DNA of 20,332 bases from Synechococcus sp. (GTDB lineage Bacteria; Cyanobacteriota; Cyanobacteriia; Thermostichales; PCC-7336), in contig JBFRWD010000154.1 in assembly GCA_051439425.1 (NCBI GenBank), positions 1-20,332 of the forward strand, written 5' to 3'. The number at the start of each line of letters is the position of its first letter. Position 1 is the first letter of the stretch. The notes beneath the pieces were generated by a model, which had not been told where the DNA came from, did not search any database, and saw only the letters and a program-made list of their open reading frames with translations. A program made the translations under genes and the position numbers. Positions 1 through 17,400 of this stretch are shown here, one piece after another.

Positions 1-540
1 GAGCTGGGACAACTCGCCAATTTGACGAGGCTTGACCTCGACAACAATCAACTGAGCAAGGTGCCCAAAGAACTGGGGCAACTCGCCAATCTAACAGTGC
101 TTTTCCTCTACAACAATCAACTGAGCAAGGTGCCCAAAGAACTGGGACAGCTCACCAATTTAACGGAGCTTTTCCTCTACGGCAACCAACTGAGTGAGGT
201 ACCCCAAGAGCTGGGAAAACTCGCCAATCTGGAGAGGCTTCGCCTCGATATAAATCGGTTGAGGGAAGTGCCCAAAGAACTGGGACAACTCGCCAATTTG
301 ACGAGGCTTGACCTCGACAACAATCAACTGAGGGAGGTGCCCAAAGAATTGGGACAGCTTGCCAATCTAACAGTGCTTTACCTCTACAACAACCAACTGA
401 GTGAGGTACCCAAAGAGCTGGGACAACTCGTCAATCTGCAGCAGCTTAGTCTCGAAAACAATAAACTGAGCGAAGTTCCCAAGGAACTGGGACAACTCAT
501 CAATCTGACGGAGCTTGAACTCACGAACAATCCACTCAAT
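1..540 (+). repeat. Tandem 69-bp LRR-coding repeats (7 complete units plus a partial 8th)
   Basis: Units start at 1, 70, 139, 208, 277, 346, 415, 484. Consensus ELGQLANLxxLxLxxNQLSEVPK. Units 1 and 5 are identical at 66/69 nt. Confidence 0.97.
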
Positions 541-2883
541 CCCGAACTTGCAGCTGCCTATAGGCAGGGATTAGACGCGGTTAAAACCTATCTCCAAGCC
601 CAAACCGAAGAACAAATTGTGTTGAATGAAGCGAAGCTGGTTTTGATCGGGGAGGGGGAAGTTGGTAAGACCAGCCTATTGGGAGCGCTGCGAGGCGATG
701 CCTGGGTCGAAAACCGCGAGACCACCCACGGGGTTGAGGTGGATATTAAATCGCTGATGGTTAGCGATGCTGGCAGCGGAACAGAAGTCACCTTTAATGG
801 CTGGGACTTTGGCGGCCAAAATATCTATCGTCATACCCACCAGCTCTTCTTCACTGCCCCTGCCATCTATCTCGCCGTGTGGAATCCCCGCCGAGGCCCA
901 GAACAATGTCGGGTGGATGAATGGATCGAAATGGTCAAACATCGGGCCTATGACGATACCCAACCCGACGCCAAGCCCTACATCTTTGTTGTTGCCACCC
1001 ACGGCGGTCCCAAAGAACGGCTCGATCACATCGACGAACAGACCCTAAAGGATGAATTTGGTGACTTAATCATCGGCTTCCACCATGTGGATAGCAAAAC
1101 TGGCCACCAGCTTGATGACCTCAAACAGCTGATTGCCCACACCGCCGCCAACATCCCTCAGGTCGGTCGCACTGTTCCCGCCAGTTGGAAGCGGGTGTTG
1201 GACGCCATTCGCCAACACAGCCAAACTGACGCCTGGATAACCTACGAGCAATTCCAATCCCTCTGTGCAGAACAAGACGTCGATCTAACGCTGGCGAAAA
1301 CCTATGCCGCCATCCTCAACGAGCTAGGCCACCTAATCCATTACAGCGCCGACCCCGTGCTTAAGGATACGGTAATCCTCAAGCCCGAATGGCTCAGCAA
1401 AGCCATCAGCTTTGTACTGGAAGATAAGCAGGTTAAAGACCAAAACGGCCTGGTGCGCCACAATCGCCTCAGCCACTTGTGGAACGATCCAGCCCGAGGA
1501 GAGGACCGTTATCCAGAGCGCCTTCACCCCGTGTTTCGCAAGCTGATGGAACGCTTCGATCTGTCCTATCAAGTGGATCTACCAGAGGCCGACGCCCCAC
1601 CTACCAGCCTGCTGGCCCAACTGGTGCCCAGTAAGCGCCCCGATAATTGGCAACAAGATTGGGTATTGAAAACAGGGGATACGGAACGCACCCACATTTG
1701 TCGCATGCTCGACAAAGACACCGGACGCACTGTTGAAACCGAAGGGCTAATGTACCGCCTGATTGTGCGTCTCTACCGCTATTCCCTCGGTCGTCAAAAC
1801 TACTACAACAGCCGCCATTGGAAAAATGGACTCATCCTCGATGACGGTTTCAACGGTCGTGCCTTTATTGAAGAAATTGGCGGCGATGTTTATGTCACCG
1901 TGCGTGCCGCCTATCCCAGCGGCTTCTTGAGTCACCTTTGCTCCGAAATTGAATGGTTGGTGAAATCCTTTTGGAAAGGTATCGACCCCCGACTGTACAT
2001 TCCCTGCCCCACTGAAAGATGCAAGGGCGTACTGGAGCGAGACGAAATCTTAGAGTTTAAAAATCAGGGCATGCCCAAAGTTCGCTGTTCCGTCTGCAAA
2101 ACCTTTCACGATATCGATGGGCTGATCGCCACCAGTGCCGCCAAACCCGAATGGCAAGTCGCCGTTGCCGAACTCAAACAATGTCAACAGAACATTATTA
2201 ATGCTGTCGAGCACGGTGTCGATTCCCTCAACGTCCAGCTCAAAACCCTAATGAGCCAAGCTGACGAACAATACGAAGCCCTGCTCACCACCCTTACCGA
2301 CTTCGCCAAAGATGGCCCCCGTCTCTTTAGTTTGGAACCTCTCGACCCTGGATCTTGGGACAAACCCAATTGGGTTGCTCAAAAGTTTCGACTCACACTT
2401 TGGTGCGAACATCGTCGGTTGCCACTGCCGGTACTGAATGGTGAAGGCGATACCAGCGGTGTTTACGAACTAGAAATCACCCGTGACTGGCTCAAGCGAG
2501 CCTCGCCACTGCTCCGGGTTATGTCGGTAACCCTGAAACTCGCACTACCGATCGCCATTCCGGGCACAACGCTAGCCACCGATGACGCTGAATATAAAGG
2601 CATTGCCGAACAACTCGAATTTGGCGTCAAATCCGGGAATTCATTTCTTTCAGGCGGAGAAAAAATCGGCGATTGGCTCGTTGAAGGTGATGCTGCCGAT
2701 ATGGATCGAACCAGCAGCAATACCAAAGATGTCTTTCGCGCCCAAGGTTCTGCCCTGCGCGAACTTCACGCCCTCTTAAAAGAAAAAGATCCAGCTAGCA
2801 GCTTTGGTGGCCTAGTACGCGTGCAAAATAAACGCCGACAATTCCTCTGGGTCCACCCCGATTACGTGAGCGAATACTCTTAA
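1..2883 (+). CDS. Roco-family protein (LRR-Roc GTPase-COR-Zn ribbon-C-terminal domain), 5'-truncated by the window edge
   Basis: Frame is open from base 1 (ELGQLAN...), so the TTG at 22 is not the true start. About 8 23-aa LRRs, then P-loop GEGEVGKTS (649-675), G2 TTHGV, G3 WDFGGQ (802-819), COR motifs (LNELGHLIHY, VILKPEWLSKAI, LMERFDLSY), CxxxxC..CxxC, stop TAA 2881-2883. Confidence 0.93.
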   Translation, partial: ELGQLANLTRLDLDNNQLSKVPKELGQLANLTVLFLYNNQLSKVPKELGQLTNLTELFLYGNQLSEVPQELGKLANLERLRLDINRLREVPKELGQLANLTRLDLDNNQLREVPKELGQLANLTVLYLYNNQLSEVPKELGQLVNLQQLSLENNKLSEVPKELGQLINLTELELTNNPLNPELAAAYRQGLDAVKTYLQAQTEEQIVLNEAKLVLIGEGEVGKTSLLGALRGDAWVENRETTHGVEVDIKSLMVSDAGSGTEVTFNGWDFGGQNIYRHTHQLFFTAPAIYLAVWNPRRGPEQCRVDEWIEMVKHRAYDDTQPDAKPYIFVVATHGGPKERLDHIDEQTLKDEFGDLIIGFHHVDSKTGHQLDDLKQLIAHTAANIPQVGRTVPASWKRVLDAIRQHSQTDAWITYEQFQSLCAEQDVDLTLAKTYAAILNELGHLIHYSADPVLKDTVILKPEWLSKAISFVLEDKQVKDQNGLVRHNRLSHLWNDPARGEDRYPERLHPVFRKLMERFDLSYQVDLPEADAPPTSLLAQLVPSKRPDNWQQDWVLKTGDTERTHICRMLDKDTGRTVETEGLMYRLIVRLYRYSLGRQNYYNSRHWKNGLILDDGFNGRAFIEEIGGDVYVTVRAAYPSGFLSHLCSEIEWLVKSFWKGIDPRLYIPCPTERCKGVLERDEILEFKNQGMPKVRCSVCKTFHDIDGLIATSAAKPEWQVAVAELKQCQQNIINAVEHGVDSLNVQLKTLMSQADEQYEALLTTLTDFAKDGPRLFSLEPLDPGSWDKPNWVAQKFRLTLWCEHRRLPLPVLNGEGDTSGVYELEITRDWLKRASPLLRVMSVTLKLALPIAIPGTTLATDDAEYKGIAEQLEFGVKSGNSFLSGGEKIGDWLVEGDAADMDRTSSNTKDVFRAQGSALRELHALLKEKDPASSFGGLVRVQNKRRQFLWVHPDYVSEYS

Positions 2884-10202: not shown

Positions 10203-10240
10203 GTTTTGTTAAGCGATGAAGGTTTTGTTAAGCGATGAAG
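10203..10240. repeat. Perfect 19-bp tandem duplication
   Basis: GTTTTGTTAAGCGATGAAG at 10203-10221 and 10222-10240. Confidence 0.95.
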
Positions 10241-10386: not shown

Positions 10387-11343
10387 CTAATTGAGGGATG
10401 ATGGGGGAAAAGACTCGGAGTAGGCGCTTCCCGGGGTGGTGAGCTTACCGTTGGACGCTCCATTCACGATGGGTTGATGCAGGCTAATCAGCTGGTTCAA
10501 ACGACGGGTAAGCTTCGGACGTCGAACGATCGCATCAATCAGCCCATGTTCCATCAAATATTCTGCAGTTTGGAAGCCTTCAGGTAGTTTCTGTCGAATG
10601 GTCTGCTCGATAACCCGTCCACCCGCAAATCCAATTAACGCACCGGGCTCAGCCAGAATAATGTCACCCAACATGGCATAACTGGCCGTTACCCCTCCAA
10701 ATGTGGGGTGGGTTAACACGGAGATAAAGAGTTGACCGGCTGCTCGATGGCGCTCCAAAGCAGCAGACGTCTTTGCCATCTGCATCAGGCTAAAGATACC
10801 TTCGTGCATGCGGGCTCCGCCAGACGCACAGCAGACAATGAGAGGGAGATGTTCGGCAGTCGCTCGTTCGATCAGGCGTGTGAGCTTTTCTCCCACCACC
10901 GAGCCCATGCTGCCCCCCATAAACCGGAAATCCATAATGCCTAGTGCAACCGGGATCGGCTGGTGAATGGAATCGCCGCGCAGTTGACCGATGCCCGTGA
11001 CGATCGCATCTGACAGGTGAGTTTTATCTTGGGTCGCCCGAACGCGATCGCGATAGGACTGGCGATCGACAAACTCTAAAGGGTCGCCAGACACCAGGTT
11101 GTTATCCAGCGAAGTCCAGGTATCCAGATCGATCAACTGCTCCAATCGCTCTTCAGACGTTGCGCGGTAATGGTGCCCGCAATCGGGGCACACCAGGAAG
11201 TTCGTTTTTAAGTCTTTGCTGTAGGTCAGTGCATCGCAAGACGGACACTTTTGCCACAAGTCATCAGCAATCTCCCGCTCTTGGCGTTCTTTGCTGATGG
11301 GAGTGTCTTTACGTCGGTCTGCAAACCAGTCAAACAGAGACAT
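10387..11343 (-). CDS. accD: Acetyl-CoA carboxylase carboxyltransferase beta subunit
   Basis: [12 protein letters not shown] start, Zn finger LWQKCPSC...[38 protein letters not shown]. Confidence 0.97.
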
Positions 11344-11570
11344 GTATTCCGCCGCCTGTCGGTCCTTCCTTACTATGCTAGAGCAATCTTGACGCCGAGC
11401 TACTATCCTGCACTTTTACCTACATCGCACGTGTGTAGCCAAGCCAAGGTCACATCAATGAGGAAGCTTCGGTCGTTGCCAAGCTTCAATAGGGATGGGT
11501 AATAGCTGCCAGAGCGGGAAAACTGTAAGCCGTCCCTGAAACTGGGTTGAGAGAGTCTCGGGGAGAGTCA

Positions 11571-11634
11571 CCCGATGTTGCCACCATCGTTGTCCTAATG
11601 TTGAGACCATCTTTCCTAATGTTGGGACCATCTA
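11571..11634. repeat. Three-copy ~21-bp tandem repeat, core ATGTTGnnACCATC
   Basis: cccgATGTTGccACCATCgttg (11571-11592), tcctaATGTTGagACCATCtt (11593-11613), tcctaATGTTGggACCATCta (11614-11634). Confidence 0.85.
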
Positions 11635-11672
11635 TCATCAAGGCCGTATAGGTCAATTGCTATTCAACGTTC

Positions 11673-11885
11673 CTAGTTGATGGGAGATTGTTCCTCCTTG
11701 ATTAACTGGGTTGCGACATACGCATTTCGTTTCTCAACCAAAATAGCCGTTGTCGCGCCCGAGCCGAAATAAACTGTCGACCCCAAATCTATCAAGCGGG
11801 TGGGAATGTCATACCCCGACAGTAGCTGCGCTAAGAGCTCTGCCTCCCAACGGTTGGCCTTTGTGCACAATCGAGTCCACGCCAT
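11673..11885 (-). CDS. DUF2007-like putative signal-transducing small protein, 70 aa
   Basis: W..L.....RWEAELLAQLL....IP.R..DLG...YFG.G pattern of cyanobacterial DUF2007 proteins; GGAGG upstream of ATG 11885. Confidence 0.7.
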   Translation of the reverse strand: MAWTRLCTKANRWEAELLAQLLSGYDIPTRLIDLGSTVYFGSGATTAILVEKRNAYVATQLIKEEQSPIN

Positions 11886-12146
11886 ATTCGCCTCCCACTT
11901 GACCGAACTCATATTAACGTGAGCCTTCGGTCGGGGTAGAACAATGAACTCAAGTTTGACGCATCGCTAATTGGGAGCGAGTAACGGCTAGGATTGCTTT
12001 CAAACAAGAGGGGTGGGGCAAACCAGTCATTTATTAAACACAACCCTCACTTTGCGAGATCGGCCTTCATGGGCAGTTGATTTTGATTGTCTGGGTTATC
12101 ATTCAGTCATATTGAACAAATATTAAGTTGAGTTACAGATTCGCAG

Positions 12147-13274
12147 ATGCAGGTTGTTCCGAACTTTTCCGCCCTCGCTTCTAACTCCTTAGAAAAGAAT
12201 GCATATCAGGCTCTTCAGTGGAGCAAAAACTTTTTTGGAGTGTTCCACAAAATCGCATCCACCCGTGCAGGGCTGGCGATAACTGATACCTCAACAGCTA
12301 TTCAGCAGCTTTTTGAGGGGAAGTTTCCTGACTTGAGCTCCTCGTCGGCATCATCCCAAATGGCCAGCCCGCAAACGCTCAATATTGTCAGGCAGAGATT
12401 CGAGCGTATTTTGGAGGTCGATTGGCAGGACGCAGAGAATGGCCTGTATCCTAAAGCTTTGCTGTTCGACAACCCTTGGCAGGATTTTTTCCGGTTTTAT
12501 CCGCAAGTGTGGTTTGACCTACCCGGAATGTTGAATCGAGTAAAACGCAAGAGATATCAGGAGTTCAATCCGACGATTGACACTGACAACTATCCTAAGT
12601 ACTACCTGCAAAATTTTCACCACCAGACTGACGGGTACCTGAGCGATCGCTCGGCTGAACTCTACGATTTGCAGGTGGAATTATTGTTCGGGGGTAGTGC
12701 TGACATTATGCGACGCCGGGTGATTCGTCCCATCATCGACACCTTCGGTCATCCCGATAAATCCACTCGCATACTAGATATAGCTTGCGGCACCGGCAGA
12801 ACGCTGCGGATGTTAAGGGGCGCATTTCCTGACTCTAAACTCTTCGGAACCGATCTGTCCCCGGCTTATTTGCGTAAAGCCAATCAATTATTGAGCGAGT
12901 TATCTGGGGAGTTGCCTCAACTCTTGCAGGCAAATGCTGAAGAACTTCCCTATGCAGATAAAGCTTTCGACATCGTCACCAGCGTCTTCCTATTCCACGA
13001 GTTGCCGGGTGAAGCTCGCCAAAACGTCATTAACGAAGCCGCTAGAGTGCTAAAACCCGGCGGATTAATTGTGATTTGCGACTCTATCCAGATGAATGAC
13101 TCGGCAGAGTTAAGCGAGTTGATGGATACCTTCGATACCGCGCTCCACGAACCTTACTATCGCGATTACATTCGGGATGATTTGGGCAAACGCCTAGAAT
13201 CAGAAGGGTGCGAGGTGGTAGAGACTGAGGTGCATCTTATGAGTCACTACACCATTGCCCGTAAGCCTGCTTAA
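12147..13274 (+). CDS. Class I SAM-dependent methyltransferase (UbiE-like, conserved cyanobacterial family)
   Basis: Motif I ILDIACGTG, GTDLS, NAEELPY, FDIVTSVFLFHELP, RVLKPGG; family motif YYLQNFHHQTDGYLS. Confidence 0.88.
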   Translation: MQVVPNFSALASNSLEKNAYQALQWSKNFFGVFHKIASTRAGLAITDTSTAIQQLFEGKFPDLSSSSASSQMASPQTLNIVRQRFERILEVDWQDAENGLYPKALLFDNPWQDFFRFYPQVWFDLPGMLNRVKRKRYQEFNPTIDTDNYPKYYLQNFHHQTDGYLSDRSAELYDLQVELLFGGSADIMRRRVIRPIIDTFGHPDKSTRILDIACGTGRTLRMLRGAFPDSKLFGTDLSPAYLRKANQLLSELSGELPQLLQANAEELPYADKAFDIVTSVFLFHELPGEARQNVINEAARVLKPGGLIVICDSIQMNDSAELSELMDTFDTALHEPYYRDYIRDDLGKRLESEGCEVVETEVHLMSHYTIARKPA

Positions 13275-13386
13275 CCGGTTTTGCCTTACAACACGTGGCA
13301 ATATTTGACGGGGAGCGATATCCCTCTGAGAAACTGTTTAATAAATGCAACCTTTCACCTACCGTCAGTCCTGGCGGTGACTCCCC

Positions 13387-14370
13387 ATGCTCGGTTCTGA
13401 GGCGATCGCCCTCCATTCCAATTCCAATGCCCTCAATCTAGCCGGCCCACAAGAGACCAATCTTAAGTTGGTATGCCGTCTGACGGGGGCTCAAGTAGCC
13501 GTGCGCGGCGATGAATTGTGGACAACAGGGACGGAGTCTCAACGTCAGCGGGTTAAAGCGTTGGTTGAGCTACTGTCCCCCCTCTGGCAACAAGGTAGTG
13601 CAGTCACCGAGGTCGATGTCGAAACGGCGTTGGGAGCGCTGAATACGCACCAAGAGGAGCGCTATCGCACCTCTCAGAATCAGGTGTTGGCCGTCAATCG
13701 CAAAGGGGAATCGATTCGCCCTAAAACCCCTCGCCAGCAGCAATACATTACAGCGATAGAGACTCACGACCTGACCTTTGGACTAGGCCCAGCAGGAACG
13801 GGCAAGACCTATTTGGCGGCGGTAGTGGCTATACAGGCGTTGAAAGACCGCAAATACGATCGCCTGATTCTCACCCGACCGGCGATCGAAGCTGGAGAAC
13901 GGTTGGGTTTCCTACCCGGCGATTTACAAGCAAAGATCGATCCGTATCTGAGGCCGCTGTACGACGCACTGTACGAATTCATCGATGCGGAAAAAGTCTC
14001 CCAGTTGATGGAACAGGGGGTGATTGAGATTGCGCCGCTGGCCTATATGCGTGGGAGAACCCTCAGCAATGCCTTTGTCATCTTGGACGAAGCTCAAAAC
14101 ACCACTCCCGAGCAAATGAAGATGGTACTGACGCGGATTGGATTTCAGTCCCGCATGGTGGTGACGGGCGATCTGAGTCAGACTGACTTGTTAGCCCACC
14201 AAACATCTGGTTTGACAATGGCAGCTAGGATTTTGGAAGGGGTCGAAGGAATCGCCACCTGCCGGTTTAAACAGCAGGATGTCGTTCGCCATCCGCTGGT
14301 GCGTCGAATTGTGGCCGCTTACGAAAAATTTGAGGCTGGAGACAAACAGCCTCCCAAACTCAGGAAGTAG
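13387..14370 (+). CDS. phoH: PhoH-family ATPase
   Basis: Walker A GPAGTGKT, RPAIEAGERLGFLPGD, YMRGRT, Walker B ILDEAQN, GDLSQTDL, VRHPLV. Confidence 0.93.
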   Translation: MLGSEAIALHSNSNALNLAGPQETNLKLVCRLTGAQVAVRGDELWTTGTESQRQRVKALVELLSPLWQQGSAVTEVDVETALGALNTHQEERYRTSQNQVLAVNRKGESIRPKTPRQQQYITAIETHDLTFGLGPAGTGKTYLAAVVAIQALKDRKYDRLILTRPAIEAGERLGFLPGDLQAKIDPYLRPLYDALYEFIDAEKVSQLMEQGVIEIAPLAYMRGRTLSNAFVILDEAQNTTPEQMKMVLTRIGFQSRMVVTGDLSQTDLLAHQTSGLTMAARILEGVEGIATCRFKQQDVVRHPLVRRIVAAYEKFEAGDKQPPKLRK

Positions 14371-14397
14371 AACTGACACAGAGAATTCGATACCGAT

Positions 14398-14428
14398 AAA
14401 AGGCCAGCGAGGAGTTACCCCGCTGGCC
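14398..14428 (-). terminator. Terminator between convergent phoH and glsF (U-tract on the minus strand)
   Basis: GGCCAGCG (14402-14409) and CGCTGGCC (14421-14428) form a stem, preceded by AAAA at 14398-14401. Confidence 0.72.
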
Positions 14429-14471
14429 ATATAATTACGCTGGCTAATTCAGTTGTTTCTCGTACAACTGG

Positions 14472-17400
14472 CTACTTCGCGACAGCAGGTTCCTCGCTTA
14501 CAGCCGGTTGACTGTGGGTGAGTTCGGTATTGTCCTCAGACGGTGGGACAACTTGCCAGAACTTAGGCAAGTACTCATCCCAACGTTCCAGTATCAAGGC
14601 TGCTTTCGGACTACCGGTGCGATCGCTATGGCGTTGAATAAACCCTCGCAATTCCTCTTGCGCAGCAGTCGTTTGAATCCTCTGAATGCGCACAATCTCG
14701 CCATTCACTTTCGAGGGCAAGTTACCGGCTTCATCCAATAGGTAAGCCATGCCGCCCGTCATACCGGCTCCAACATTGCGGCCCACTTTACCCAGGACAA
14801 CGATGCGGCCACCGGTCATGTATTCGCAGCAGTGATCGCCAGCCCCCTCAATCACCGCCTGACCGAGGGAGTTACGCACGGCAAATCGTTCGCCAGCCAC
14901 ACCGCTAGCGTAGAGGGTGCCACCAGTGGCTCCATACAGACAGGTATTACCCAAGATGACATTCTCGTGTGGGGCACGATGGGCCGATACAGGGGGCTTG
15001 ATGACAATCTCGCCACCGTTCATCCCTTTACCGACGTAGTCATTGGCTTCGCCCACTAGCGTTAACGTCATGCCGGGCAGCGTATAAGCACCGAAGCTTT
15101 GTCCGGCACTACCGGTAAAGTCTAAATTAATCTGGCCACCCTTCTCGGCGAATCCGCTATTGCCATACTTCTTAGCTACGCGGCCAGCAATACGGGCGCC
15201 GACCGTACGATCGGTGTTGCAGATATCGGAATGAACGCGTACCTGGCCCACTTGTGCGATCGCCGCTTCTAACTCGGGATTGTGCAGCAGGTCGTTATCC
15301 AGAACGGCACCGTTGCTGTGGACGTCTTCGTGCTCCAACCAGCTGCGATCGTCACGAGTATCGGGCAGATCGAGCAGGCAACTGAGATCGAGTTTGTGCA
15401 CTTTCGAAAGCTGCACGTCAGCGCGAGCCACCAACAAGTCAGAACGTCCCACAATCTCGTCGATCGAGCGATAGCCCAGCTTGGCCAAGATTTGGCGGAC
15501 TTCATCGGAAACAAAGGAGAAGAAGGTGACAACATCTTCAGGAACTCCTGAGAAACGCTCCCGCAGCCGCTCTTGCTGAGTAGCAACACCTACAGGGCAC
15601 TGATTCGTGTGGCAGACTCGCGCCATGATGCATCCGACGGCAATCATGGCCACCGTACCGAAGCCGAATTCCTCAGCTCCCATCATGGCCGCCATCACGA
15701 CTTCCCAGCCAGTGCGGATACCTCCGTCTACACGCAAGATAGAGCGATCGCGCAACCCGTTCTCCATCAACGCTCGATGAACTTCCGTTAATCCCAATTC
15801 CCAAGGACTACCGGCATGCTTAATCGAGCTGAGGGGAGACGCCCCAGTACCACCATCGTGACCGGAAATTTGAATAATGTCGGCGTTGGCTTTGGCAACA
15901 CCAGCCGCAATTGTGCCGATACCGATCTCCGCGACTAACTTCACCGACACTTTCGCTTCAGGATTAATCTGATGCAGATCGAAGATCAGCTGAGCCAGAT
16001 CCTCAATCGAGTAAATGTCATGGTGGGGAGGGGGAGAAATTAGGGATACACCGGGTTTAGAGCGACGCAGACTGGCAATGTAGGTGCTGACTTTGTGCCC
16101 GGGCAACTGACCGCCCTCTCCAGGCTTGGCCCCCTGCGCCACCTTGATTTCAATCTGCTTAGCGTTCAGCAAATATTCAGGGGTGACACCAAACCGCCCG
16201 GAAGCCACCTGCTTGATGGCAGAACTAACGCTGTCGCCAGACTTCAATCCTTTGAGGTGGGGGAACAGAGCGGACTTGCCGTCAGCAGTCACATCGTGGA
16301 TTTGGATAAATCGCGTGGGATCTTCCCCCCCTTCGCCGGAGTTAGACTTACCGCCAATCCGATTCATTCCGATCGCCAAAGTCTCGTGAGCTTCGCGGCT
16401 AAGGGCCCCCAGAGACATGCCTCCTGTGGCAAAGCGGCGAAAGATCTCTTCAGCAGGTTCCACCTCGTCTAGGGGAATGGGCTGGCGATCGCTCTTAAAT
16501 TCCAATAAGTCTCGCAGTGTGGTGGGGGGGCGGCTAGCAATACTGTCGCGATAAACCTCGTACAAGTCGGGATTGTCCGATTCCAGCGCCTTGTGCAACT
16601 GCTTAGCCATCATCGGACTGTTGATGTGGTGCTCTCCTGTACGGCGGGCCTGGATAAAGCCGTAGTTTTCTAGTTTTGTGCCCTGGAGTTCGGGGAATGC
16701 CCTCCCGTGGAAGTCGATGACCTCTTGAGCCAAGTCAGCAAGAGTCAAACCACCAACTCGAGACACAGTGCCGCAGAAGGCCAAATCCACCAACTCAGAG
16801 CTGAGGCCGATCGCCTCGAAAATCTGTGCCCCTTGGTAGCTGGAGAGTAGCGAAATACCCATCTTGGAGAGGATCTTCAGCAGCCCCAGCTCTACCGCCG
16901 CGCGATACTTCAGTTGCACCTCTTCAACAGTCTGAGCTTCTAGCTTGCCATCCGCCATCATCTTTTGAGTCTTAGGCTTGCTCCACCACTGACGAACGGT
17001 TTCGAACGCCAGATACGGACAAACAGCACTGACACCGTAGCCAATCAGGCAAGCAAAGTGGTGGGTACTCCAGCATTGGGCGGACTCAACCACAATGGAT
17101 GCCTGCAGGCGCACCCCTTCTCGAATCAAATGGTGGTGGATGGCACCGGCAGCTAATAGCGGTGGAATAAAAGCATGCTCGGAATCCAGGCCGCGATCGC
17201 TCAATACGAGCGCTTCAGTGCCATCCCGCACAGCAGCTGCTGCTTGGACGCACAACTCACGAACAGCCTTTTCCAATCCCCCCGGCCCATCGGCGATAGC
17301 AAACAAGATCGGCAGGGTCGTTGTCTTGAAGCCTCCGGAGGATAGTTGAGCAAGCTCCGACTCGTTCAGAACTGGACTCTTGAGGTGAAGCAACCGAGCA

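Follow-up and report, generated by a model that had tools for sequence, protein, structure and literature searches.

The window analysed here covers positions 1 to 20,332 of contig C154 (JBFRWD010000154.1) in the Synechococcus sp. assembly GCA_051439425.1, and it begins within an array of leucine-rich repeats (LRRs) belonging to a cyanobacterial GTPase with LRR, Roc (Ras of complex) and COR domains (ROCO). The original prediction had singled out the stretch 25..530, where codons 9-15 (xxLxLxx) of units 1-8 are located, as the variable surface of a receptor diversified either by a retroelement or by strong selection. Our data make it highly probable that the array is the ordinary LRR sensor arm of a ROCO GTPase, evolving as LRR solenoids usually do. 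Units and blocks of units would duplicate and recombine in register, by unequal crossing-over or gene conversion, and this in-register recombination would keep parts of the units alike. The scaffold residues, namely L, N, P and those of the helix, would be held by purifying selection, the x positions of the beta-strand that are exposed to solvent on the concave face would be nearly free to change, and positive selection, at most modest or episodic, would act on codons 10 and 12. Variable residues on the concave face are a textbook property of LRR proteins.

Identification of the gene was based on domain searches and structural modelling. Frame 1 is open over positions 1-2883 and encodes a 960-residue protein, P0001, whose 5' end is missing at the contig start (the genome amounts to 4.8 Mb in 182 contigs and is 96% complete). 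The LRR array occupies 1..552 of the forward strand, as do all parts of the gene given below. Tandem Repeats Finder (TRF) reported a 69-bp period across 4-536, and the codon table divided the array into eight units of 69 bp, or 23 codons, in frame 1, with the pattern LxxLxLxxNxL; they are named R1 to R8 here. The last one (484..552) is a degenerate C-terminal cap which runs into NPLNPELAAAY. Pfam LRR families (LRR_8, E 2.8e-23; LRR_4, E 4.8e-25; LRR_1) covered residues 1-180, and the LRR part matched many solved LRR proteins of the PDB, with E-values down to 5.7e-98. The Roc GTPase domain follows at 634..954 (residues about 212-318, Pfam PF08477, E 3.6e-20) with the P-loop GEGEVGKTS, and directly after it come COR-A (residues 393-541, PF16095, E 6.2e-33) and COR-B (residues 581-709, PF25497, E 6.2e-14), together at 1177..2127; Roc, COR-A and COR-B all scored above the Pfam cut-offs. 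For the Roc-COR part, the nearest protein of solved structure was the Roco protein of Chlorobium tepidum (PDB 6hlu, E 3.3e-53, residues 175-517). The combination of Pfam LRR, Roc and COR domains with the 6hlu match therefore identified the gene as an LRR-Roc-COR (ROCO) GTPase, a cytoplasmic, LRRK2-like protein of a bacterium.

An AlphaFold model of residues 1-205 (predicted local distance difference test, pLDDT, 89; predicted template modelling score, pTM, 0.87) displayed eight strand-helix units, in every one of which codons 10-14 formed the beta-strand (residues 10-14, 33-37, 56-60 and onward, unit by unit). In standard LRR geometry the residues of codons 10, 12 and 14, between which the buried leucines of codons 11 and 13 lie, are directed towards the concave face. 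The modelled position of the strands thus places these three codons on the concave side, which is presumably the ligand-binding surface. Codons 9, 10, 12, 14 and 15 of each unit were treated as face codons and the remaining ones as scaffold.

The observation that had drawn attention to this array was confirmed in part. In the frame-1 codon table of positions 1-552, all the codons that had been listed were exact. Codon 11 was CTT and codon 13 was CTC in 8/8 units, codon 10 read AGG, GTG, GAG, AGG, AGG, GTG, CAG and GAG from R1 to R8, codon 12 was of the form NNC in R1-R6, and codons 14 and 15 carried the alleles that had been listed. Change was indeed concentrated at the x positions of the beta-strand, since 16 of the 44 minimal steps among R1-R7 fell into the 10 columns, out of 69, formed by positions 1-2 of the face codons (binomial P 2.7e-4; the last unit of each array was left out of minimal-step counts, as of tree counts and of third-base conservation). 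The additional claim that neighbouring synonymous sites were frozen did not hold. Forty-two of the 69 columns varied among the eight units, eight of them being positions 1-2 of codons 10, 12, 14 and 15 and 34 lying elsewhere. Third positions varied at 15 of the 23 codons in R1-R7, including codons 9, 12, 14, 15 and 16, and were invariant at codons 2, 6, 7, 10, 11, 13, 18 and 22.

Constancy of the two leucine codons was considered separately. Over 994 long open reading frames (ORFs) of this genome, CTT and CTC represented 8% and 15% of leucine codons and AGG 4% of arginine codons, so neither of the two leucine codons is a favourite of this genome. The idea that codons 11 and 13 are under a special synonymous constraint was nevertheless dropped: tree counting gave one synonymous change at codon 11 and none at codon 13, for 1.5 expected at each, and in 29 other arrays the counts were 66.5 for 71.7 expected and 59 for 65.4 expected, respectively, that is 90-93% of expectation. 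Conservation of the third base within arrays was ordinary as well (0.74-0.76 at codons 11 and 13 vs 0.70-0.81 at other codons). Across 30 arrays from several phyla (the one in the window and those of loci L009-L064) the majority codon was CTT at codon 11 in 17 and CTC at codon 13 in 20, and the leucine of codon 8 was encoded about equally by CTG, TTG and TTA. A related unit at the end of contig C89, described below, has CTC at codon 11. The CTT/CTC preference was therefore attributed to common ancestry or a mild codon bias.

Substitution rates were obtained for pairs of units by Nei-Gojobori counting and, on a tree of R1-R7 and the C89 unit, by parsimony counting with one-sided Poisson P-values. 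In the pairwise comparison, the proportion of nonsynonymous differences (pN) was 0.47-0.49 in the face and that of synonymous differences (pS) 0.45, giving a ratio of 1.04-1.11; the scaffold had a pN of 0.065-0.117 and a pS of 0.43-0.44, giving a ratio of 0.15-0.27. Synonymous divergence of the scaffold was thus about equal to replacement divergence of the face. On the tree, the ratio of nonsynonymous to synonymous rates (omega) reached 1.48 for the face (one-sided P 0.042, uncorrected) and 0.17 for the scaffold. The highest values belonged to codon 10 (2.36, P 0.023) and codon 12 (2.13, P 0.038), both uncorrected, followed by codon 14 (1.03) and codons 15 and 9 (0.95 each); none of the per-codon P-values survived correction for five codons. 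With an omega near 1 and per-codon P-values failing correction, the face evolves nearly neutrally, positive selection being hinted at for codons 10 and 12. Ratios at or below 1 had been named as the outcome that would refute diversifying selection, and measured by that rule the face was borderline (1.04-1.48, with codons 10 and 12 at about 2.1-2.4). In the 29 other arrays, face codons had omegas of 0.58-1.04 (mean 0.89) and the scaffold 0.41.

Segment-wise comparison of the units gave evidence of recombination. Units R5-R6 (277..414) are block-duplicate partners of R1-R2 (1..138), R1 and R5 being identical at 66 of 69 bases and R2 and R6 at 60 of 69. Over codons 8-15, R1 equalled R5 at all 24 bases and R2 differed from R6 at one, and each of these face haplotypes was marked by its own synonymous variants of codons 8 and 9 (TTG-ACG vs CTA-ACA). 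Codons 16-23 grouped otherwise: here the C89 unit, R1 and R2 were identical (0 differences), and R3 differed from R6 at one base. Since face segments and tails group differently, the units, among them R1 and R2, are recombinant mosaics in which face variants were inherited as blocks, and recombination would be the homogenising process. The linked synonymous markers argue for descent and not for resetting, as copying from one template would erase them. Mean pairwise identity among R1-R7 was 74% for amino acids (range 57-91%) and 78% for nucleotides.

This inheritance of face variants bears directly on the proposal that the face codons are rewritten from a template such as AAG-CTT-AAC-CTC-AAC-AAC by a diversity-generating retroelement (DGR) or a DGR-like adenine mutagenesis. 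The proposal had taken the absence of a reverse transcriptase (RT) from the genome as a point that would tell against it; a DGR-type RT is encoded, on another contig. The single RVT_1 match of the genome (E 2.7e-16) lies on contig C146, where the region of about 11450-16220 (locus L005, 3447-10797) is a canonical DGR with an RT, an A-rich template repeat rich in AAC, and three variable repeats. Its targets are three genes of the type combining FGE-sulfatase (FGE, formylglycine-generating enzyme) and C-type-lectin domains, of 273, 456 and 902 residues, the second bearing a TIR domain at its N-terminus. Downstream of the RT, a stretch of 124 bases was 85-89% identical to the 3' ends of these three genes, and within a core of 116 columns the mismatches fell on template adenines in 12/12, 14/15 and 15/16 cases (41/43 in total). 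DNA comparison with the assembly gave no other match of this template in the genome, the LRR array included. The RT frame is interrupted by a TGA at residue 126 of 366. A HicA/HicB pair sits between the RT and the TIR-fused target of 456 residues, and a gene for a TraI-like helicase/DUF3854 protein lies beyond the target of 273 residues.

Besides the presence of this RT and its AAC-rich template, the retroelement proposal could draw on the codon pattern, with codon 10 of the form NNG in 8/8 units and codon 12 of the form NNC in 6/8, and on 32 of 38 mismatches lying at 'A' sites when units were compared, by hand count, with the post-hoc template of the original prediction. Derivation of the codons from such a template by A-to-N changes stood to the extent that the third base is retained, and to no greater extent, because AAG can give rise to any NNG and AAC to any NNC. 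No A occurred among the states of 10 of the 42 variable columns, and 34 of the 42 lay outside the proposed positions, as compared with 41 of 43 differences at adenines in the true DGR of this genome. A blastn search of positions 1-552 (word size 7) against all 182 contigs revealed no extra or non-coding copy of the LRR unit, with 4% of the genome unassembled; apart from C154 itself, the array matched only the ends of contigs C89 and C93, both of which are coding LRR contig ends. The absence of a template copy, which had been named among the points that would refute the proposal, is thus what was found. The stretch moreover folds as an LRR solenoid and lies at the 5' end of its gene, and is not a C-type-lectin or Ig-like fold at the 3' end; DGR target folds are usually of these two types according to PMC10907252, a study of DGR targets in multicellular bacteria whose main text contains neither 'LRR' nor 'leucine'. 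Sibling arrays, presented in the next paragraph, show the pattern in extreme form in genomes lacking a second unit copy, one of which also lacked any RVT_1 match. With no template copy in the assembly, linked synonymous changes and variable columns devoid of A, mutagenesis of the LRR array by a reverse transcriptase is rejected, the C146 DGR targeting other genes, and a DGR-like origin of the face variation is scarcely credible. This removes a false lead, as a DGR acting on an LRR would represent a new target fold.

Distribution of the pattern among related genes was examined on 43 family loci taken from species genomes. Twenty were kept with at least 5 regular units, and the other 23 were excluded because either five regular units of 23 residues or an ORF with a P-loop was not detected. 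Among these 20 orthologous-family arrays, the ratio of face pN to scaffold pS ranged from 0.56 to 3.25 and was below 1 in 14, the array of the window being mid-range. Paralogous ROCO arrays from a genome of the same genus (L010, genome G001) and from two genomes of other families (L013, G031; L016, G036) displayed the pattern in extreme form: positions 1-2 of the face codons took 9 of 12, 6 of 7 and 10 of 13 minimal steps, respectively (P 4e-6 to 6e-5; 25 of 32 in total), and face pN/pS was 1.4-3.7. Unit identity was 86-90% in these three arrays and in L020, L034 and L041. Likewise, the 69-bp units of L034 (Lusitaniella coriacea) were identical in nucleotides except at positions 1-2 of codons 9, 10, 12, 14 and 15. 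The codon 10 alleles GAG, ACG and AGG recurred in L010 and L013, two unrelated genomes. No second array copy was found in the genomes of L010, L013 and L016, save for the remaining half of the gene itself at the end of a contig, and one sibling host genome (99% complete, 20 contigs) had no RVT_1 match; the pattern therefore needs no DGR. These arrays could indicate that the LRR faces of cyanobacterial ROCO proteins are diversified by a fast process free of RT and template, either targeted or based on very rapid unit turnover and selection, of which the array in the window would be an older, decayed example. This evidence lies in the sibling arrays and not in the window, and the reading as a whole is very unlikely. 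If true, these proteins would be LRR-based variable sensors, a bacterial counterpart of the fungal receptors discussed at the end of this text.

Another possible explanation is that P0001 is an immune-type receptor, with sustained strong diversifying selection on the concave face and frequent homogenisation keeping the scaffold uniform. The elevated omegas of codons 10 and 12, the mosaic units, the near-identity of L010, L013 and L016 outside the face together with their face pN/pS, and the published parallels cited below are all compatible with it. In an alignment of 26 homologues, face positions were 13% identical vs 48% for scaffold positions, unit-by-unit orthology in that alignment being not assured. 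However, the synonymous divergence of the scaffold matches the replacement divergence of the face, and this high divergence shows that the array of the window is not homogenised; codons 9, 14 and 15 are close to neutral by their omegas, as is on average the face of the 29 other arrays. PADLOC contained no defence-system model for P0001 and returned a single weak match, to LeoA (E 0.007), over the P-loop stretch. Selection together with homogenisation, the second process offered in the original prediction, was accordingly retained in one part, the recombination mosaics being visible, and reduced in the other, selection being weak. Its support is weak in the window and good in some of the sibling arrays. 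As an account of the window, an immune-type receptor under sustained selection seems unlikely.

A candidate for the missing 5' end of the gene lies on contig C89. The end of C89 (bases 1-260, minus strand, locus L006) reads MTPDEGYRKALQRIRTAL-TGA-RRLIVLDLSGLGLSEVPK, then a complete unit and the first part of a further one, and was 91% identical to positions 53-167 of the window. The closest homologues, P0003 (MTPDKAYR...) and P0002 (MVPDEAYR...), have similar N-termini. On the basis of this identity and of the homologue-like N-terminus, the C89 end is most likely the 5' end of the gene in the window. It encodes an N-terminal cap helix and has an in-frame TGA at codon 19, where homologues carry an ordinary residue, with a TTG three codons downstream; the gene may be broken, it may restart at this TTG, or the TGA may be a base error. 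The start of a second LRR gene was present on C93 (30885-31178), with the unit LTEVPAELGNLQSLTLLRLDSNQ, and runs off the contig end. Judging from its N-terminus and unit, which both differ from those of C89, it belongs to a paralogue, and it corresponds to a ROCO protein of 1074 residues (L011) encoded in another genome of the genus. Contig C115 carries a third ROCO gene, which is complete.

The units of the window could in principle be chimeras joined from short reads of a longer, collapsed array. The contig starts inside the array, the gene beginning most likely at the end of C89. A second assembly (Logan contigs) was available from a sequencing run that contained 95% of the sampled words of the window, three other runs containing only small shares of the stretch; the former run may be the window's own source, so agreement between the two is not independent support. 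In that assembly, a 91-nt contig over 59-149 had a depth of 33 vs 11-13 in its flanks and differed from the window at 7 letters, and therefore more units exist than were assembled. However, a 438-nt contig spanning 120-557 and a 4472-nt contig spanning 528-1500 both agreed with the window at 0 differences, subject to the same reservation on their source. Chimeric joining would also shuffle real variants and would not create variation specific to the face, and the same pattern was present in arrays inside long contigs of other genomes. An assembly artefact is for these reasons extremely improbable as the origin of the pattern.

Several observations weigh against the view of the array as an ordinary, nearly neutral LRR arm. 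The excess over the neutral rate at codons 10 and 12 leaves room for some positive selection. The rare codon AGG is used for 3/3 arginines at codon 10, and this codon ends in G in 9/9 units when C89 is included, so that the third base has outlasted several replacements. In the two youngest pairs of units, R1/R5 and R2/R6, one face replacement was counted vs 8 synonymous changes of the scaffold (binomial P 0.027 under neutrality), which speaks against strong diversification of the face, but choosing these pairs by whole-unit identity favours those with the same face codons; R1 and R2, a close pair when judged from the scaffold (4 differences in 54 bases), had 6 differences in the 15 bases of the face. 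The sample consists of 8-9 related units of 23 codons, and pairwise counts among them are non-independent. Finally, the middle of the array is unassembled, and R1-R2, at the contig edge, were not confirmed by the second assembly, which had no contig over 1-50 and differed over 59-149.

Homologues of P0001 were counted in thousands. The nearest were 76-80% identical, the best among 5.8 billion proteins reaching 80%, and the family spans several phyla at 55-80% identity; in 41 related genomes the nearest protein was 50% identical. Mean identity to the 26 aligned homologues was 43% for the LRR part, 76% for Roc-COR and 66% for the C-terminal part. The closest relative at the DNA level, L047 from an Acaryochloris sp. 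metagenome-assembled genome (81%), had only three LRR units, and at about 1500-2000 of this locus a frame break separates the LRR cap from Roc, which could be an assembly collapse or a broken gene. The C-terminal extension of P0001 (2128..2883, about 250 residues, residues 710-960, followed by the stop codon) comes after a Cys-rich CxxxxC...CxxC stretch that ends COR-B. No Pfam match was obtained past residue 709, and an ESM Atlas search with the C-terminal 261 residues found only COR-family clusters (score 0.77). This region was 49-79% identical in the 26 homologues, across phyla, and is a possible output domain.

Elsewhere in the window, intergenic tandem repeats flank an accD-like gene (10387-11343) on both sides: TRF reported a 19-bp repeat in 2.0 copies with 100% identity at 10203-10240, and a 21-bp repeat in 2.7 copies with 86% at 11575-11633. 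An Rfam scan of the whole window found nothing.

The DGRs of multicellular cyanobacteria, as described in PMC10907252, resemble the C146 system, with its RT, A-rich template and three FGE-sulfatase/C-type-lectin targets. The C146 system agrees with the 'antigen sensor' view in the literature and was used here as an internal positive control for adenine mutagenesis; it shares no sequence with the LRR gene, lies on a different contig and has targets of a different fold. A search of the literature, with subscription journals outside its scope, found no description of near-identical LRR arrays with variable face codons in bacterial ROCO proteins or LRRs. Among eukaryotes, the LRR-ROCO genes of the brown alga Ectocarpus, as presented in PMC3341825, were reported to show positive selection at concave-face sites, with significant codeml site models. 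They are alike in having an LRR arm before Roc-COR and shuffled units, but each of their units is an exon and the process is exon shuffling, whereas the units of the window are codons of a single ORF and the signal is borderline.

A further parallel is offered by repeats with high internal conservation (HIC). In fungal NOD-like receptors (NLRs), the WD40, ANK and TPR repeats consist of near-identical units with hypervariable binding sites, which, in PMC4986451, are attributed to concerted evolution and positive selection. The same repeat behaviour was described for bacterial NLRs (bioRxiv 10.1101/2020.01.06.895854), prokaryotic NLRs being stated there to lack LRRs. HIC repeats sit on STAND NTPases, whereas the array of the window is an LRR on a ROCO GTPase. 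A further study on fungal NLR repeats (PMC1805685) reportedly also found near-identical units with hypervariable binding sites. Units of the window, at 74% identity, were below the PMC4986451 threshold of more than 85% over at least 100 residues, and HIC-like near-identity was encountered in the six sibling arrays L010, L013, L016, L020, L034 and L041. Sibling ROCO arrays varying mainly at face codons would be a cheap target for studying how bacteria vary a binding surface.

LRRs with hypervariable positions have also been mined from genomes, including surface LRRs of Flavobacterium psychrophilum and LRRs of Dictyostelium purpureum (PMC10392669). They are similar to the array of the window in their regular units of about 22-23 residues and in a few hypervariable positions on one face, which in Dictyostelium are dominated by Tyr and Asp, as are codons 12 and 14 of the window. 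They differ in being secreted, surface-exposed or eukaryotic, while the LRR of the window is the N-terminal arm of a cytoplasmic GTPase. The closest prokaryotic system is the Roco protein of Chlorobium tepidum (PDB 6hlu and 8r4b), which has the same order of LRR, Roc, COR-A and COR-B, and to which the P0001 family adds its conserved C-terminal region of about 250 residues without a Pfam family.

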